DNA from: Escherichia coli
Lineage (GTDB): Bacteria; Pseudomonadota; Gammaproteobacteria; Enterobacterales; Enterobacteriaceae
Strand: one strand, 5' to 3'
Length of the DNA: 64,000 nt
Assembly: GCF_003334305.1 (NCBI RefSeq)
Contig: NZ_QOWS01000026.1
Below the pieces are notes generated by a model. That model was not told the DNA's origin. It did not search any database and was given only the letters and a program-made list of their open reading frames with translations. Shown here piece after piece: positions 21,326-27,289 of the stretch. Within the stretch, counting starts at the first letter, position 1, and each line of letters begins with the position of its first letter. The translations under genes were made by a program, and so were the position numbers.

Positions 21326-21957
21326 AACGACGTGACACCATCGTGCGCTACACCGCGCCGGAACGTATCAACCACTGGATCACCGCCTTCTGCTTCATCC
21401 TGGCGGCGGTGAGCGGGCTGGGCTTTTTGTTCCCGTCCTTCAACTGGTTGATGCAAATCATGGGCACACCGCAGCTGGCGCGAATTCTGCACCCGTTTGT
21501 CGGCGTGGTTATGTTTGCCTCGTTCATCATCATGTTTTTCCGTTACTGGCATCACAACCTAATCAATCGGGATGATATCTTTTGGGCGAAGAATATTCGT
21601 AAGATCGTCGTCAACGAGGAAGTAGGTGACACCGGGCGTTATAACTTCGGTCAGAAATGCGTTTTCTGGGCGGCGATTATTTTCCTGGTTCTGCTGCTGG
21701 TGAGCGGCGTGATTATCTGGCGTCCTTATTTTGCGCCTGCTTTCTCAATCCCGGTGATCCGATTCGCGTTAATGCTGCATTCATTTGCCGCAGTGGCGTT
21801 AATTGTGGTTATCATGGTGCATATCTACGCCGCCCTTTGGGTGAAAGGCACGATTACCGCCATGGTGGAAGGATGGGTTACCAGCGCCTGGGCGAAGAAA
21901 CATCACCCGCGCTGGTACCGTGAGGTCCGCAAGACAACGGAAAAGAAAGCTGAATGA
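21322..21957 (+). CDS. fdoI: Formate dehydrogenase-O cytochrome b556 subunit
   Basis: 211 aa polytopic membrane [26 protein letters not shown]...; ATGA overlap with fdoH. Confidence 0.95.
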
Positions 21958-22883
21958 GTATTCGCATAATCCCGCAAGATGAGCTGGGTTCAAGCGAGAA
22001 ACGTACGGCGGATATGATTCCGCCGTTATTGTTCCCTCGGCTCAAGAATTTATACAACCGCCGCGCCGAGCGTCTGCGCGAGCTGGCAGAAAATAATCCG
22101 CTGGGTGATTACCTGCGCTTTGCTGCGCTTATCGCCCACGCCCAGGAAGTGGTGCTGTACGACCATCCGCTGGAGATGGATCTGACCGCGCGCATTAAAG
22201 AAGCCAGCGCACAGGGCAAGCCCCCGCTGGATATTCACGTTCTGCCGCGTGATAAGCACTGGCAAAAGCTGCTGATGGCGCTGATTGCTGAGCTGAAACC
22301 TGAAATGAGCGGCCCGGCGCTGGCAGTGATTGAGAATCTGGAGAAGGCATCGACTCAGGAGCTGGAAGATATGGCCAGCGCACTGTTTGCCTCTGATTTC
22401 TCATCCGTCAGCAGCGATAAAGCGCCGTTTATCTGGGCTGCACTGTCGCTCTACTGGGCGCAGATGGCCAATCTGATCCCCGGCAAAGCCCGCGCTGAAT
22501 ACGGCGAGCAACGTCAATATTGCCCGGTTTGTGGTTCTATGCCGGTGTCCAGCATGGTGCAAATTGGCACCACTCAGGGTCTGCGTTACCTGCACTGCAA
22601 CCTGTGTGAAACCGAATGGCACGTAGTGCGCGTAAAATGCAGCAACTGCGAGCAGAGCGGCAAACTGCATTACTGGTCGCTGGATGACGAACAGGCCGCG
22701 ATTAAAGCCGAAAGCTGCGATGACTGTGGCACTTACCTGAAGATTCTTTATCAGGAAAAAGAACCGAAAGTTGAAGCCGTGGCAGATGACCTCGCTTCTC
22801 TGGTACTGGACGCGCGAATGGAGCAAGAAGGCTATGCCCGCAGTTCCATCAACCCGTTCCTGTTTCCGGGTGAAGGGGAGTAA
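21954..22883 (+). CDS. fdhE: Formate dehydrogenase formation protein FdhE
   Basis: 309 aa ORF with paired CxxC motifs; ATGA overlap with fdoI. Confidence 0.95.
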
Positions 22884-23127
22884 TCTCTGACGTTTTCCGG
22901 GTGGCGCTGGTCGCCCGGATTACAGCTCATAGGGTGTGACGACACCATCTCTCGTATTCCGCGTTACCCATTCAAGATCATGCCGCAATTGTCTGTTTGC
23001 CTCGTTCTTCCCTCCAACACATCGATAAGGTTATGGGTATGTCACTGATGACAAGCGTATGATTGCCTGATGCGCTGCGCTTATCAGCCCTACCAATAAA
23101 CTTCAATATATTGAATTTGCATGACTT

Positions 23128-23161
23128 TGTAGGCCGGATAAGGCGTTCACGCCGCATCCGG
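23128..23161. repeat. REP element
   Basis: gtaggccggataaggcgttcacgccgcatccggc, between convergent fdhE and yiiF. Confidence 0.75.
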
Positions 23162-23212
23162 CATGAACAACGCGCACGTTGTCAGCAATCTGATTGACAT
23201 CATTTTTTCCCA

Positions 23213-23431
23213 TTACCATTCCTCGCGCAGCTTACGCTGATATTCGACACCATCTTCCTCACACCCTTGCCAGATGCCAGGAACACTGGTTCTTGCTGTT
23301 TGCGATTGATTTATCAGGTATTGATCTACCGCTTCCCTTAATAGGTCCGCACGAGGAAGATTACGCTGCACCTCGAGATCATCAAGTTGCTTAATCACCT
23401 CATTCGATAAATCGAGTAAAATTCTGCCCAT
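23213..23431 (-). CDS. yiiF: Ribbon-helix-helix (CopG-like) small protein YiiF
   Basis: 72 aa from ATG 23431 ([39 protein letters not shown]...); the in-frame ATG at 23455 is an alternative start. Confidence 0.8.
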
Positions 23432-23540
23432 ATCTATACCTGCCAGAGAGTTCATAAATATCTCGCCAATATCATTTTTGAATCTATGGAGAGAAAAGTA
23501 CCCTTGCCGAATCTTTAAAGAAAGCTCATTTACGCATCAT

Positions 23541-23590
23541 TTTTTATTTTTGCGAGGCGTTTTCCAGATACGATGTAACAGTTGCAGTTA
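23541..23590 (-). repeat. Conserved upstream element, copy 1 (before yiiF)
   Basis: Core tttgcgaggcgttttccaga at 23549..23568 (plus strand); shares an extended ~45 bp match with copy 2, including gttgcagtt. Confidence 0.6.
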
Positions 23591-23673
23591 TTATAAGTTC
23601 AAGTAAAACAGCCTTGTATTAATACCAGAATAAGGGCATCTGTTTTTTTATATTCAAGAATGAAAAATTTTTT

Positions 23674-23892
23674 TCATTCCTTATGCTCCTTACACTGATC
23701 ATCAACACCAACTGTCTCACCCCTTTGCCTGCCTCTCTTTGCTTTACGCACCGGAAATTGCTGCCGCTCCAGATATTGCTCAACCGCTTCGCGTAAAATT
23801 GCAGATCGTGAAACCTTACGCCAGCCCCGAAGCTTGTTCAGCCGTTTAATTGCCTCTTCTGATAAATGAAGAAAAACCGTATTCATCGCCAT
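23674..23892 (-). CDS. yiiE: Ribbon-helix-helix (CopG-like) small protein YiiE
   Basis: 72 aa from ATG 23892 (MAMNTVFLHLSEEAIKRLNKLRGWRKVSRSAILREAVEQYL...) with AAGGTGG SD 5 nt upstream. Confidence 0.85.
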   Translation of the reverse strand: MAMNTVFLHLSEEAIKRLNKLRGWRKVSRSAILREAVEQYLERQQFPVRKAKRGRQRGETVGVDDQCKEHKE

Positions 23893-23979
23893 TACCACCA
23901 CCTTACATATATTACTCATTAATGTATGTGCGAAAATTACGCCGGAAAATCATTTAAAAAAAGCGGATTTTTGCATGTT

Positions 23980-24029
23980 GTTTTGTTTTTGCGAGGTGTT
24001 TTCCAGAAATAATAAGAGTGTTGCAGTTG
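23980..24029 (-). repeat. Conserved upstream element, copy 2 (before yiiE)
   Basis: Core tttgcgaggtgttttccaga at 23988..24007, then gttgcagtt at 24020..24028. Confidence 0.6.
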
Positions 24030-24318
24030 TTTCATTTATTACTCAAAAATGGTTTAGTTATCGCCCAGGATGAGTTATGGATGCTATGAATATATTATAT
24101 TCAGGGATGTTTATTTTTTGATTGGATCTTTATTTGCATAATCTGAATGGTGTACCCGAAAAATGTCAGCATCCTAACAGCACCCGGATTTAAGGTGAAA
24201 TTAATCATCCATCACAGACCGGTCAGTACTGCCACCAACCGGTCTTTACTTGTTCATCGTTATAATTTTGTTGGTAACAGTTCGGGAAACAAGGAATTCC
24301 TTCCGGAACCCCCCGGTA

Positions 24319-24411
24319 TCATCCGATAGCATTGACGTCAATCATCAGCGCGACGATGAGTTTTTTTAATCGCATCATAGGGTGGCGACGTTCAGCACGA
24401 TTACGGGTCAT
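24319..24411 (-). CDS. Hypothetical 30-aa ORF downstream of antitoxin gene
   Basis: ATG at 24411 preceded by CAGGAG with a 7-nt spacer; translation MTRNRAERRHPMMRLKKLIVALMIDVNAIG. Below the ORF-track size cutoff; no homology assessed. Confidence 0.25.
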   Translation of the reverse strand: MTRNRAERRHPMMRLKKLIVALMIDVNAIG

Positions 24412-24496
24412 AGCAAAACTCCTGGGCAGGCGACCACTATGCCGCTTTCACAGGAGTTCTGAATGCTAGTGCTTTCTGTATGGCATAACCATGCCT

Positions 24497-24787
24497 CTAA
24501 CGGTTAAGTGCTTGCAGCACATGTTGCGGATCATTGGCAATCGCTCGCAGCAAAGCCTTTGCAGGCCCGGTCGGTGAACGTCGCCCCTGCTCCCAGTTAC
24601 GCAACGTGTCTACGCTTACAGAAATAAGATCGGCAAATTTAGATTGTGACAACCCTGAAGCGCGGCGTATTTCTTTGATTTTCATAGCATCAACTTCAAA
24701 AGTCCGCGAAGGCTGTCGCGTTCCTTCAATAATTTCATTCATCTGGGCCATGCTGTGAGTCAACCGCTCAAAAAGTGCCTTATCCAT
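24497..24787 (-). CDS. XRE-family HTH antitoxin-like protein (HigA-like)
   Basis: 96 aa ORF; ..IKEIRRASGLSQSKFADLISVSVDTLRNWEQGRRSPTGPAKALLRAI.. is a typical XRE helix-turn-helix; start directly abuts the toxin ORF stop. Confidence 0.75.
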   Translation of the reverse strand: MDKALFERLTHSMAQMNEIIEGTRQPSRTFEVDAMKIKEIRRASGLSQSKFADLISVSVDTLRNWEQGRRSPTGPAKALLRAIANDPQHVLQALNR

Positions 24788-25099
24788 TTACCACCTCGTA
24801 TTTAACAACCGGAGCATTGCTTTTTCCTGGGGAGACAGATCATCTTTAATACCCTTACGATAAATAAGCAGTAATCTGATCTCATAATGTTTAACCTGAT
24901 GAAAGTAAATAACCCTGACACCAGCACGTTTCCCCTTTCCTCCTGAAACCCATCGAACCTTTCTTAACCCACCAGTTTCAGGTATTACCTCACCATAGTC
25001 AGGATTCAAGGCCAGGAAAAACTGAAAACGACTGAATTCATCGTCGGTCAGCAGTTTTTGAACATCTTCAGTAAAAATTTCCGTTTCGATGAAGAGCAT
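24788..25099 (-). CDS. RelE/ParE-superfamily (HigB-like) toxin-like protein
   Basis: 103 aa ORF MLFIETEIFTEDVQKLL...GGLRKVRWVSGGKGKRAGVRVIYFHQ...LLLIYRKGIKDDLSPQEK...; motif pattern matches RelE-like toxins that pair with a downstream HTH antitoxin. Confidence 0.7.
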   Translation of the reverse strand: MLFIETEIFTEDVQKLLTDDEFSRFQFFLALNPDYGEVIPETGGLRKVRWVSGGKGKRAGVRVIYFHQVKHYEIRLLLIYRKGIKDDLSPQEKAMLRLLNTRW

Positions 25100-25136
25100 A
25101 ATTATACGCCATTGGCTTAGAGTAACAATCCTTTTT

Positions 25137-25153: not shown

Positions 25154-25215
25154 CCTTGAAACCACTAGCTTACTGATAGTGCTCCAGCAAAACCACGTCT
25201 CTGCCGGGTTTGTCT

Positions 25216-25240
25216 TTAGATTTGCGAGGCGCTTTCCAGA
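25216..25240 (-). repeat. Conserved upstream element, copy 3 (before toxin gene)
   Basis: Core tttgcgaggcgctttccaga at 25221..25240, about 120 bp upstream of the toxin ATG, in the divergent intergenic region shared with the esterase gene. Confidence 0.55.
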
Positions 25241-25327
25241 TTTTTCACGCCCGTGAATTTCCCTGTATCCATCCAGCAAAAACGGGTGTATAAGACTGTA
25301 CATTCATACAGCAAAATAAGTTCTACT

Positions 25328-26236
25328 ATGGCACTGGAAAAAGGAATTGCAGAGTTAGTCGAAAAGTTTATCGCTGCGGGTCGCCCCTCATCGCGTCAAC
25401 AAAGTATTGCGCAGCGCAGGGAGGGCTATATCGCCAGCGCTGTCCTTGCGGGTGAGACAGAAACGCGGGTAGATATTCAGACTATCGAACTTGAAGGGAT
25501 GACCTTACGAATAGTGTCGCCGCTGAATGCCCCGACATTACTCCCGACGATAATTTATTACTACGGTGGCTGTTTTGTTAGCGGCGGGTTCGCAACTCAC
25601 GACAACCAGCTGCGCCAGTTAGCCTATTACGGGCAATGTCGGGTTATTGCCGTCCAGTATCGGCTGGCACCGGAACATACTTTCCCCGCCGCCCATGATG
25701 ATGCGCAACGAGGTGCAGAAATAGTCTGGCAACACGCCGAACGACTCGGCGTTGATAAACAACGTATAACTCTTGCCGGTGACAGTGCGGGCGGACATCT
25801 GGCGCTGGTAACTGCTTTGCGATTAAAGCGTGCTGGCGAGTGGCAACCGGCACAACTCATCTTAATTTATCCTATGCTTGATGCGACTGCGCATTTCGAA
25901 AGCTACATACGCAATGGTCACGATTACATCATCACACGCGACACTTTACTGAGCGGCTTTGAGATGTATCTGCCAGGCATTGAACGCAGGCATCCTGAAG
26001 CCAGCCCTCTTTGGCGCGATGATTTCAATGGCTTGCCACCTGTACATATCATTACCGCTGAATACGACCCACTTTGCGATGAAGGTGAAGCGTTGTATCA
26101 CCGCATGACAGGGCAAGGAGTGCAATGCACCTGCCAACGCTACCTTGGCGTTATCCACGGATTTTTTCAGTTAGGTGGTATCAGCGAGGCCGCGCGATCG
26201 GCACTACGGGATGTTGCCTGGAGAGCGGGAAGGTAA
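25328..26236 (+). CDS. Alpha/beta-hydrolase fold esterase/lipase (HSL-like family)
   Basis: ORF track 25253..26236 (GTG); first ATG at 25328 (MALEKGIAELV...). Contains GDSAGG nucleophile elbow, acidic residue in EYDPL and His in GVIHGF; oxyanion-hole region reads YYGGCF rather than HGGG. Confidence 0.7.
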   Translation: MALEKGIAELVEKFIAAGRPSSRQQSIAQRREGYIASAVLAGETETRVDIQTIELEGMTLRIVSPLNAPTLLPTIIYYYGGCFVSGGFATHDNQLRQLAYYGQCRVIAVQYRLAPEHTFPAAHDDAQRGAEIVWQHAERLGVDKQRITLAGDSAGGHLALVTALRLKRAGEWQPAQLILIYPMLDATAHFESYIRNGHDYIITRDTLLSGFEMYLPGIERRHPEASPLWRDDFNGLPPVHIITAEYDPLCDEGEALYHRMTGQGVQCTCQRYLGVIHGFFQLGGISEAARSALRDVAWRAGR

Positions 26237-26299: not shown

Positions 26300-27289
26300 C
26301 TACTCTTCTTCGTTCCCGCCCTCTTCATACGGGCCAAATGGCTTCGCGGGCAGAACGATATACGTGCCTTCAAACACTGCACCCGGCGTCTCGTCGCCAA
26401 AGATTTCAACTTGCATCTGCACCCGTGCTTTTCGTCCGCGCGCCAGACGGTCGAGATCGCCGCTTAAGGCACCAAGGTCGGCTATCGCATGAGGTTTACC
26501 GCTAATCGGCTTGCTGTAGCGGATATGCGCATCCGCCAGAATAATCGTTCCGCCGAGATGGCGTTCGCGCAGCATCAGCCAGATAAGCCCCCAACCGGTG
26601 AGCGTCGCCAGCGAGAATAAACTCCCGGCAAACAGCGTATGGTGCGGATTCTGATTGCCGGTTTCCGGCATGGTGGTGATAAATTTTTGCCCGGTATATT
26701 GTTGAATGCGCACGCCCATTTTTTCGCTTAATGGAATGTGTTCATACCACGCCTGTTGCAGCTGGGCGCACCAGTCACCGCGATGCAGAATATCATCCAG
26801 AGTGGCAACGGGTTTAATCATCAAAAAATGGCGAATCGGCGTGGTAGTTGGGGTGGTGATCTCCCCCTGATTAATGAATCCCAGCTTGGCGAAAAACTCC
26901 ACCGCGTCTTCACGGGCGCTACAGGTCACGCGCTTAACGCCTTCCTGACGCGCCACCGACTCCAGGGTCATCGCCATCAGCGTTCCTAACCCTTTGTCCT
27001 GCACGTCGGGATGAACGGCCATAAAGCGAATGGACGCTTCATTGTCGGCATTAATATACAATCGGCCTACCGCCACCAGATTACCCTGCTCGTCGACGAC
27101 CATCTGGTGATGCGCCATCGCATCCCACGCGTCGCGTTCCGAACCTTTTGGTTGATGCAGGGGCTTACGCAACATTTCCCAGCGAAACTGATAGTAACGC
27201 TCTAATTCTTCTTCTGTTTGTGGAACCCGAAGGTGATACATAGCGATACTCTCTCTTGTTTCCCGTGACAACCCTGGAAGCTGGCTCAT
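26300..27289 (-). CDS. yiiD: GNAT acetyltransferase / thioesterase fusion protein YiiD (FabY)
   Basis: 329 aa [43 protein letters not shown]..., recognised as YiiD. Confidence 0.92.

Follow-up and report, generated by a model that had tools for sequence, protein, structure and literature searches.

Why should Escherichia coli keep two small genes of antitoxin type, yiiF and yiiE, one behind the other and with no toxin gene beside them? We addressed this question in a 64,000-nt stretch of E. coli DNA (contig NZ_QOWS01000026.1, assembly GCF_003334305.1), here called the window, in which both genes lie on the minus strand, yiiF at 23213..23455 and yiiE at 23674..23892. They are long-standing uncharacterised genes of E. 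coli K-12. YiiF appears in literature lists as an uncharacterised transcription factor, one review table puts it in the AraC family (PMC4797297), and the UniRef name of one YiiF allele (P0004) is 'Thymol sensitivity protein', for which the source was not found. An initial annotation of the window had described the two as tandem paralogues of the ribbon-helix-helix (RHH) fold, of antitoxin type, each preceded by a conserved upstream element and neither followed by a toxin gene. The analysis below makes it likely that the locus is a decayed and rearranged vapBC toxin-antitoxin (TA) operon, in which yiiF is the leftover VapB gene and yiiE a duplicate without the toxin-binding tail, with predicted sites for Sxy-dependent cAMP receptor protein (CRP-S sites) upstream.

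Orthologues of YiiF and the remains of vapC

YiiF comprises 80 amino acids (aa) as annotated by PGAP ('protein YiiF') and 72 aa from the K-12 start at 23431. Its sequence is identical to that of PDB 2K5J, a nuclear magnetic resonance structure, and is 65% identical over the full length to 7BY2_A, the VapB chain of Klebsiella pneumoniae crystallised with VapC (7BY2/7BY3), including the tail GxWQxCEEDGxEYQRxLRxEW. These two structure entries we take to be those of Kang et al. 2020, J Med Chem 63:13669, a paper cited in PMC11117207. Both matches support an N-terminal RHH domain in YiiF despite its weak match to Pfam RHH_1 (E=0.0072). The C-terminal tail aligns with the tails of orthologues whose genes overlap PIN-domain genes. 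By these sequence matches YiiF is an orthologue of the structurally characterised VapB. The Klebsiella system also has an RHH gene overlapping a PIN gene, but the window differs in having only a relic of the toxin gene and two copies of the antitoxin gene, of which yiiE lacks the tail.

The toxin gene is readily found at the same locus in other genomes. In Citrobacter tructae, C. freundii and Salmonella enterica subsp. diarizonae, the only RHH gene between fabY and fdhE encodes 80 to 82 aa with 72-76% identity to YiiF and overlaps a PIN-domain gene of 124 aa. A genome-wide motif scan found such RHH and PIN pairs also in Enterobacter, Leclercia, Superficieibacter and further Citrobacter species. 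Plasmids of Burkholderia, Rhizobium and others encode remoter YiiF homologues, which are likewise annotated as RHH genes that overlap VapC genes. Within E. coli, strain SX4 carries a 124-aa 'VapC family toxin' gene that overlaps the stop of its yiiF allele by one base and whose product matches the crystallised VapC of 7BY2/7BY3 with E=9e-63; a full-length vapC is present at the locus in 57 of 5,426 complete E. coli genomes (about 1%). An intact cognate PIN-domain toxin gene directly downstream of yiiF is absent from the window and present in the orthologues and in these 57 genomes. Thus yiiF is an orphaned VapB gene, and is not toxin-less by origin. The initial assignment to antitoxin-type RHH genes agrees with this result, as homologues in Citrobacter, Salmonella, Enterobacter and some E. 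coli do adjoin toxin genes.

The 329-bp gap between fdhE and yiiF is what remains of vapC. Alignments to intact vapC, tblastn matches and blastn breakpoints delimit a 294-bp pseudogene relic (22920..23213, minus strand), and the initial statement that no toxin gene follows either RHH gene is accordingly true of intact genes only. The ATG of the relic (23213-23211) shares 1 nt with the stop codon of yiiF (TAATG) and is followed by about 170 nt of inserted DNA of the repetitive extragenic palindrome (REP) type. Beyond this insert come matches to nt 26-89 of intact vapC, an internal deletion of about 213 nt that removes roughly codons 31-101, and then nt 305-375, a stretch with a further 15-nt deletion and a stop codon at 22920-22922; the 3' part reads ...LEWVTRNTRD-----GVVTPYEL* (tblastn E=1e-6). 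Repeats of the REP or bacterial interspersed mosaic element type were placed at 23050..23195 (strand not assigned) by reading the sequence and from Rfam, which gave only sub-threshold, REP-derived matches in the intergenic regions (naRNA4, ES036 at 23086-23168).

The REP insertion is absent from the relic of the R3 type. Identical or near-identical deletion breakpoints, joining vapC nt 89-91 to nt 299-312 (blastn), are found in B2-type E. coli without the insertion (R3, CB8671), in O157:H7, in the K-12-like PK5086 and in E. fergusonii. As the deletion is common to several E. coli types and to E. fergusonii, the inactivation of vapC is old and the further decay came later. A separate arrangement was seen in Klebsiella oxytoca (L076, also L044 and L054), where the upstream core described below directly precedes a 3' fragment of vapC (...KLPDAIVLATAQIDRYELVTRK...); this looks like another path of decay, marked by loss of vapB together with the 5' part of vapC.

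The yiiE duplicate and selection on both genes

YiiE is 41% identical to YiiF (BLASTP, E=3e-12), and its N-terminal RHH domain is evident from matches to Pfam RHH_1 (E=1.6e-11) and to 7BY2_A (E=2e-7); an NCBIfam search with both proteins gave far-sub-threshold matches only. Upstream of the two genes lies a 100-nt direct repeat of 71% identity (23493-23592 and 23932-24031, spacing 439), and the similarity of the DNA continues through the coding regions and their 3' ends and beyond the yiiE stop codon (repeat families D3 and D5; alignment). This continuity indicates that a whole promoter-plus-gene unit of about 440 bp was duplicated in tandem. The tandem paralogy and the conserved element before each gene, both proposed at the outset, are borne out. 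Homologues of YiiE were found only in Escherichia and Shigella, other genera having a single vapB, and yiiE is therefore the derived copy.

The two proteins differ most plainly in their tails. The DNA of the yiiE tail is homologous to that of the yiiF tail in the same reading frame, but the encoded tail (GRQRGETVGVDDQCKEHKE) is degenerate: the I, W, Y, L and terminal W of YiiF correspond to R, a gap, D, H and a stop in YiiE, which does not have the C-terminal toxin-binding tail. The outward-facing residues of the beta-strand, read from the alternation in TVFLHL and RILLDL, are T-F-H in YiiE and R-L-D in YiiF. The change of all three suggests, on sequence, an altered DNA specificity of YiiE.

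Natural recombinant forms were also observed (locus L011 and proteins P0221, P0222, P0207, P0209 and P0158). One YiiE of E. fergusonii still ends in a 15-residue stretch. Some E. coli carry fused, single-gene yiiE/yiiF alleles, and at locus L011 (3468-4093) the N-terminal RHH domain of YiiE is fused to a VapB/YiiF tail and overlaps an intact vapC. The chimeras imply unequal crossing-over or gene conversion between the yiiE and yiiF copies.

The locus would then have evolved from an ancestral state with one promoter, a vapB encoding an N-terminal RHH domain and a VapC-binding C-terminal tail, and an overlapping vapC for a PIN-domain RNase, an arrangement that about 1% of E. coli retain, as do Enterobacter, Citrobacter and Salmonella diarizonae. 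In Escherichia the promoter and vapB would have been duplicated as the tandem unit of about 440 bp. The upstream copy would have become yiiE, keeping its RHH domain strictly conserved while T-F-H replaced R-L-D and the hydrophobic tail residues were lost, and the downstream copy yiiF, still a complete VapB. Inactivation of vapC by the internal deletion of about 213 nt would have followed, and later the REP insertion and the 15-nt deletion.

Both genes have been widely retained next to the decaying vapC. Full-length yiiE is present in 5,388 of the 5,426 genomes (99%) and yiiF in 4,735 (87%). We estimated selection from 8 distinct alleles per gene, taken from E. coli and E. fergusonii, as the ratio of non-synonymous to synonymous polymorphism (pN/pS). 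All 8 variable sites in the RHH domain of yiiE (codons 1-42) are synonymous, giving pN/pS 0 with pS 0.12; about 24% of the sites in this domain are synonymous, and the calculated probability of 8 synonymous changes out of 8 under neutrality is ~1e-5. The yiiE tail is less constrained (pN/pS 0.55). Values for yiiF are 0.26-0.30 in the RHH domain, 1.3 in the linker and 0.12-0.14 in the C-terminal motif, the last also among alleles without an intact vapC, and the control gene fdhE gave 0.04. From these allele sequences yiiE and yiiF appear to be under purifying selection. The low pN/pS and the wide retention argue for a kept function, most clearly for YiiE as a DNA-binding protein, and the YiiF tail may also have some present-day role.

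Alternatively, both genes could be functionless leftovers of a dead TA module, with reading frames that stay open only on account of their shortness and of recent decay, and with an upstream core that was inherited rather than selected. In keeping with it, vapC is clearly decaying, the yiiF ribosome-binding site is degenerate in alleles that lack vapC, the yiiE tail and the yiiF linker evolve fast, the region is reported to be bound by H-NS, and deletions, fusions and insertions are common at the locus. The vapC deletion is old, however, being shared with E. fergusonii, yet yiiE is intact in nearly all and yiiF in most of the genomes surveyed. Neither the 0 non-synonymous against 8 synonymous changes in the yiiE RHH domain nor the low pN/pS of the yiiF tail is what such leftovers would show, and across genera the flanks of the core diverge but the core itself does not change. 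We consider this account unlikely.

Solitary antitoxins can serve as 'anti-addiction' factors or as stand-alone regulators, an example being the chromosomal ccd of Erwinia chrysanthemi in relation to the ccd of the F plasmid. The present locus is similar in that an antitoxin gene is kept under purifying selection without its cognate toxin gene, but it differs from solitary anti-addiction antitoxins in that no close vapBC homologue was found on enterobacterial plasmids. When YiiF was compared by tblastn with 72,556 plasmid records, the high-identity matches were only to megabase- or chromosome-sized records filed as plasmids, and the remaining matches were to distant RHH/VapC pairs of Burkholderia, Rhizobium and Megaira (31-40% identity). 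There is thus no evident incoming toxin for YiiF to counter, and a role against plasmid-borne vapBC was rejected.

The upstream core and its proposed CRP-S assignment

The conserved element upstream of both genes centers on a 20-nt core, TTTGCGAGGYGYTTTCCAGA, of which the 64 kb contain exactly three copies, even when 3 mismatches are allowed, against 0.05 expected. The core ends 93 nt before the start codon of the 80-aa yiiF and 95 nt before that of yiiE, and the third copy belongs to a 27-nt core of the 100-nt repeat that recurs at 25215-25241, upstream of a RelE-like gene. On the plus strand the three read TGCGAggcgttTTCCA, TGCGAggtgttTTCCA and TGCGAggcgctTTCCA. All match TGCGA-N6-TTCCA exactly and are the only matches to it in the window (0.2 expected by chance). 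The CRP-S motif of E. coli is given as T4G5C6G7A8-N6-T15T16C17C18A19 (Sinha et al. 2009, as quoted by Sondberg et al. 2019, PMC6728893). Predicted sites of this type, assigned to the minus strand, are thus located at 23548..23569 upstream of yiiF (site 1, 22 bp; plus-strand motif at 23551-23566, with the TGCGA half-site facing yiiF), at 23987..24008 upstream of yiiE (site 2, also an exact motif match) and at 25220..25241 between an alpha/beta-hydrolase gene and the RelE-like/NadS operon (site 3).

Known sites in E. coli have the same form. The validated CRP-S site of the autoregulated K-12 sxy promoter, TGCGAggctctTTCCG, matches the core at 16 of 18 positions and is oriented alike; it shares the asymmetric TGCGA-N6-TTCCA/G, with the conserved half-site promoter-proximal (Jaskolska & Gerdes 2015; PMC6728893). 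Half-sites of Enterobacteriaceae CRP-S sites that lack C6 have G6 (Cameron & Redfield 2006), a pattern that fits the weaker half-site of the cores, TGGAA. The sites of the window differ in being predicted from sequence and in preceding genes of TA type rather than DNA-uptake genes.

K-12 carries the cores of both yiiE and yiiF, and Citrobacter and Salmonella have a conserved core between the hydrolase gene and vapB. A motif scan with TYTGGAAARYRSCTCGCAAA of one genome per species (GTDB set) gave 99 stretches, of which 80 were obtained as loci, about 55 of them from Enterobacterales. Among these loci, about 22 genomes have the core 92-93 nt before vapB-vapC, with diverged flanks, and in two Enterobacter species it precedes the RelE-like/NadS pair by 121-122 nt. 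It is also found upstream of pairs of a Gp49-family toxin and a helix-turn-helix (HTH) protein (Pfam Gp49, E=1.7e-22), and E. coli, E. whittamii and Kosakonia have it beside RelB/DinJ-RelE pairs. Three Pantoea species carry the core 119-122 nt before sxy/tfoX (Pfam TfoX_N, TfoX_C), and in Chimaeribacter it lies 75 nt upstream of radC. Both sxy and radC are classic members of the CRP-S regulon.

An alignment of 37 distinct regions upstream of vapB, yiiF and yiiE showed three conserved blocks. The first is the core itself, invariant at 92-93 nt upstream of vapB. The second, 47-48 nt past the CRP-S-type site, reads G.GTA..TT and contains TATGTT, TAAATT, TACTTT or TAATTT, which fits a -10 hexamer. 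Predicted -10 hexamers are accordingly placed on the minus strand at 23495..23500 for yiiF (TACTTT, 48 nt past the 22-bp site) and, with like spacing, at 23934..23939 for yiiE (TAATTT). With block 2 as the -10 hexamer, the center of the site is predicted to lie near -71.5, a class I position. The third block, TGATATAC...TATAT, surrounds the ribosome-binding site and is, from its sequence, a candidate RHH operator or messenger RNA hairpin. A simple sigma-70 scan found no convincing promoter for yiiE or yiiF. YiiE is listed among SlyA targets obtained by systematic evolution of ligands by exponential enrichment (SELEX), and a weak SELEX peak of RpoS holoenzyme has been reported between yiiD and yiiE.

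The shared core is probably a site for CRP with Sxy and not an RHH operator, because it matches the consensus exactly, keeps a fixed position across genera, and precedes sxy, radC and unrelated TA families. Transcription of yiiE, yiiF and the RelE-like/NadS operon is therefore predicted to need cAMP-CRP and the competence co-activator Sxy acting from about -71.5 in class I geometry. Autorepression by the RHH proteins would probably use a different operator, close to the ribosome-binding site and the start of transcription. Control by Sxy and CRP-S is described for the TA operons hicAB (promoter P1), higBA, chpSB and hokD in E. coli and toxTA in Haemophilus influenzae (PMC11951105; bioRxiv 10.1101/633164).

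The initial annotation had instead viewed the element as the operator of the RHH proteins, with YiiE, YiiF and the neighbouring TA pair forming a cross-regulating array. RHH antitoxins normally repress their own operons, the element is present at all three units, and the core is weakly dyad-symmetric as read from its sequence. However, the same 20-mer precedes operons that encode no RHH protein (RelE-like/NadS-HTH, Gp49/HTH, sxy and radC), and it is an exact match to the CRP-S consensus. It is unchanged between yiiE and yiiF although their products differ at all three outward-facing residues of the beta-strand, and a distance of about 70 nt upstream of the -10-like block is unusual for a repressor operator. 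An RHH operator is thus improbable. Of the proposed array of related cassettes, what stands is that the three units share one element, which is more likely the site of a global activator than an operator of YiiE or YiiF. There is very little chance that the core is a sigma-54 promoter, although its conserved length fits the -26 to -9 region and its gene strand reads TGGAAA-N5-CTCGCA with GG-N10-GC spacing, since it mismatches the sigma-54 consensus at -23, -21 and -14. The spacing and the TCGC element at -12 would resemble those of glnAp2. The sigma-54 reading was rejected on the K-12 maps, as K-12 has both cores and yet neither the chromatin immunoprecipitation sequencing list, which has a site inside fdoI (PMC4591121), nor the RpoN genomic SELEX list (PMC8743547) includes a site at yiiE or yiiF.

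Several observations weigh against the interpretation of the locus as a decayed vapBC operon with CRP-S control. Upstream of yiiF, all sampled Escherichia alleles without vapC have a degenerate form (GGCGAG, GGTTAA or GGTCAA) of the GGAGG ribosome-binding site of vapB, while the vapC-bearing SX4 allele retains GGAGG; this suggests relaxed expression, with a high output of antitoxin no longer required. The selection figures come from only 8 related alleles per gene at a recombining locus, and recent or recurrent loss of vapC, or recombination with vapC-bearing alleles, could keep a functionless yiiF tail. The -71.5 spacing is a prediction from the alignment. The 20-mer also occurs before sugar-transporter genes and in other contexts, and a CRP-like site that is ordinary or has no function may account for some of its copies. 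The K-12 hicA and relB promoters have no match to the motif within 2 mismatches, so the motif misses some Sxy-responsive TA promoters. The region is reported to be H-NS-bound and SlyA-responsive, with yiiE up 2.5-fold on SlyA overexpression, and may be largely silent. Finally, the literature searched does not mention yiiE or yiiF together with Sxy, and the accessible part of it holds no data on their expression or binding under Sxy; the Sxy-induced list of Sinha et al. 2009 lies outside it and may already include the assignment.

Competence-regulated TA operons such as hicAB, from P1 (Turnbull & Gerdes 2017), and toxTA (Findlay Black et al. 2020) likewise have a type II TA operon after a CRP-S site, and the RelE-like/NadS pair shares their toxin-first order. 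The vapBC and yiiEF units, in contrast, are antitoxin-first and, in this strain, toxin-less. The genes, their fold and each kind of component (orphan antitoxin, CRP-S site, decayed toxin) are already known. What appears new relative to the accessible literature is their combination: yiiF as VapB after decay of vapC, yiiE as a constrained tail-less duplicate, and a perfect CRP-S site before each and before the neighbouring pair. This reading would give yiiE and yiiF a concrete origin and a testable biochemical activity, and would make the locus a natural example of TA decay, in which the toxin is lost first and the antitoxin is kept under selection and duplicated, one copy becoming a plain DNA-binding protein. 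If the CRP-S assignment is true, three transcription units would be added to the poorly understood Sxy regulon of E. coli, and the still unexplained link between competence and TA modules, so far resting on hicAB, higBA, chpSB and toxTA, would be firmer. A wider proposal is possible but doubtful: that the Sxy/CRP-S regulon of Enterobacteriaceae systematically recruits type II TA modules of at least four families (vapBC, RelE-like/NadS, Gp49/HTH and RelBE), that YiiE is a neofunctionalised, Sxy-induced RHH repressor with targets of its own, and that YiiF is a Sxy-induced solo antitoxin, retained against VapC toxins made from DNA or alleles that came from other strains.

Other loci with the core had further features. 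In the Gp49/HTH loci of Enterobacteriaceae RIT691 (L040) and Buttiauxella izardii (L050), the core is 75-95 nt upstream and the order is toxin-first, as in toxTA of H. influenzae. A second chromosomal locus with the same 20-nt core was seen in E. coli (L042, L059), E. whittamii (L063), a Proteobacteria metagenome-assembled genome (L027) and Kosakonia (L073, L087). A direct repeat of the GCATTACAT type immediately precedes the core in 5 of these 6 loci, being absent from L087. A RelB/DinJ-family antitoxin gene is adjacent in L027, L042, L059, L063 and L073 (the L059 protein scoring above the NCBIfam cut-off), and is followed by a RelE/StbE-like open reading frame (ORF) in L027, L059 and L073.

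Neighbouring genes and setting of the locus

The window is chromosomal DNA, and the 3.4 kb tested at this locus are 100% identical to E. coli strain 503025. On the plus strand the order is fdoH, fdoI and fdhE, the last ending at 22883; these are followed on the minus strand by yiiF, yiiE, the NadS-family gene and the RelE-like gene. The alpha/beta-hydrolase gene (25328-26236; ORF list and PGAP) is divergent from the RelE-like gene, and fabY/yiiD (26300-27289) lies beyond it.

The toxin-first pair upstream of yiiE consists of a RelE/ParE-like toxin gene (24788..25099, minus strand, 103 aa) and a NadS-family HTH gene for a putative antitoxin (24497..24787, minus strand, 96 aa), the start codon of which lies immediately next to the toxin gene. 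For the toxin, the match to Pfam RelE is weak (E=0.0062) and NCBIfam gives none, and PGAP calls it 'RelE/ParE family toxin' in some genomes; the antitoxin scores 60.7 bits for NCBIfam NadS against a cut-off of 60 and also has HTH matches of the MqsA/HipB type. The initial description of a bona fide TA pair carrying the same element as yiiE and yiiF is thus correct as to the shared 20-nt core, but TA status is by similarity only. Site 3 is 121 nt from the start of this operon and 87 nt from that of the hydrolase gene. We considered whether the third core is a displaced piece of the vapB promoter, as it stands at the ancestral distance from the hydrolase gene, like that in Citrobacter and Salmonella; however, the RelE-like/NadS operon of Enterobacter has a core of its own at the same 121-122 nt. 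A strong sigma-70 consensus match, TTGTTA-16-TATAAT (10/12), was seen at 25101-25128 on the minus strand, ending 2 nt before the RelE-like ATG. A transcript from it would start inside the RelE-like ORF, which recalls the two-promoter arrangement of hicAB.

The locus has many architectures among E. coli genomes. Between yiiE and the NadS-family gene the window retains a deleted remnant (24120..24496, minus strand) of two small genes, of 73 aa and 92 aa, both intact in other Escherichia genomes (loci L011 and L003 compared). The remnant includes a truncated ORF (MTRNRAERRHPMMRLKK...); at this position L011, L003, L012 and L013 have ORFs of 70 to 73 aa and one of 92 aa, of unknown function, and the 73-aa product in L011 looks hydrophobic. 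In B2-type E. coli (L003 2218-3831, L016, L018) yiiF and yiiE are kept apart by an insertion of two genes on the opposite strand, one for a DUF6708 protein and one for a hypothetical protein; the insertion starts some 25 nt upstream of the CRP-S core of yiiF. In Salmonella diarizonae (L009 2036-2790) a HigB_toxin/HTH_3 pair lies between fabY and an uncalled stretch resembling a hydrolase pseudogene, in a position and orientation unlike those of the E. coli RelE-like/NadS pair. TA modules appear to have settled repeatedly in the fabY-fdhE interval.

Three smaller features were also noted. At 23655-23680 (minus strand) an AT-rich perfect hairpin, GAATGAAAAA...TTTTTCATTC, starts in the last two codons and stop of yiiE; lying between the yiiE and yiiF units, it may serve as a weak terminator or as a dyad for protein binding. 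Short contigs labelled 'Robinsoniella' (L047), 'Bacillus coahuilensis' (L062) and 'Chryseobacterium sp.' (L083) carry a yiiF locus of the E. coli or enterobacterial type, near-identical to the window, and are probably assembly contamination. Inside fdoI, positions 21475-21491 on the plus strand match CTGGCGCGAATTCTGCA exactly; this is the sequence of IS47, an intragenic sigma-54 site listed for fdoI, upstream of fdhE, by Bonocora et al. 2015.

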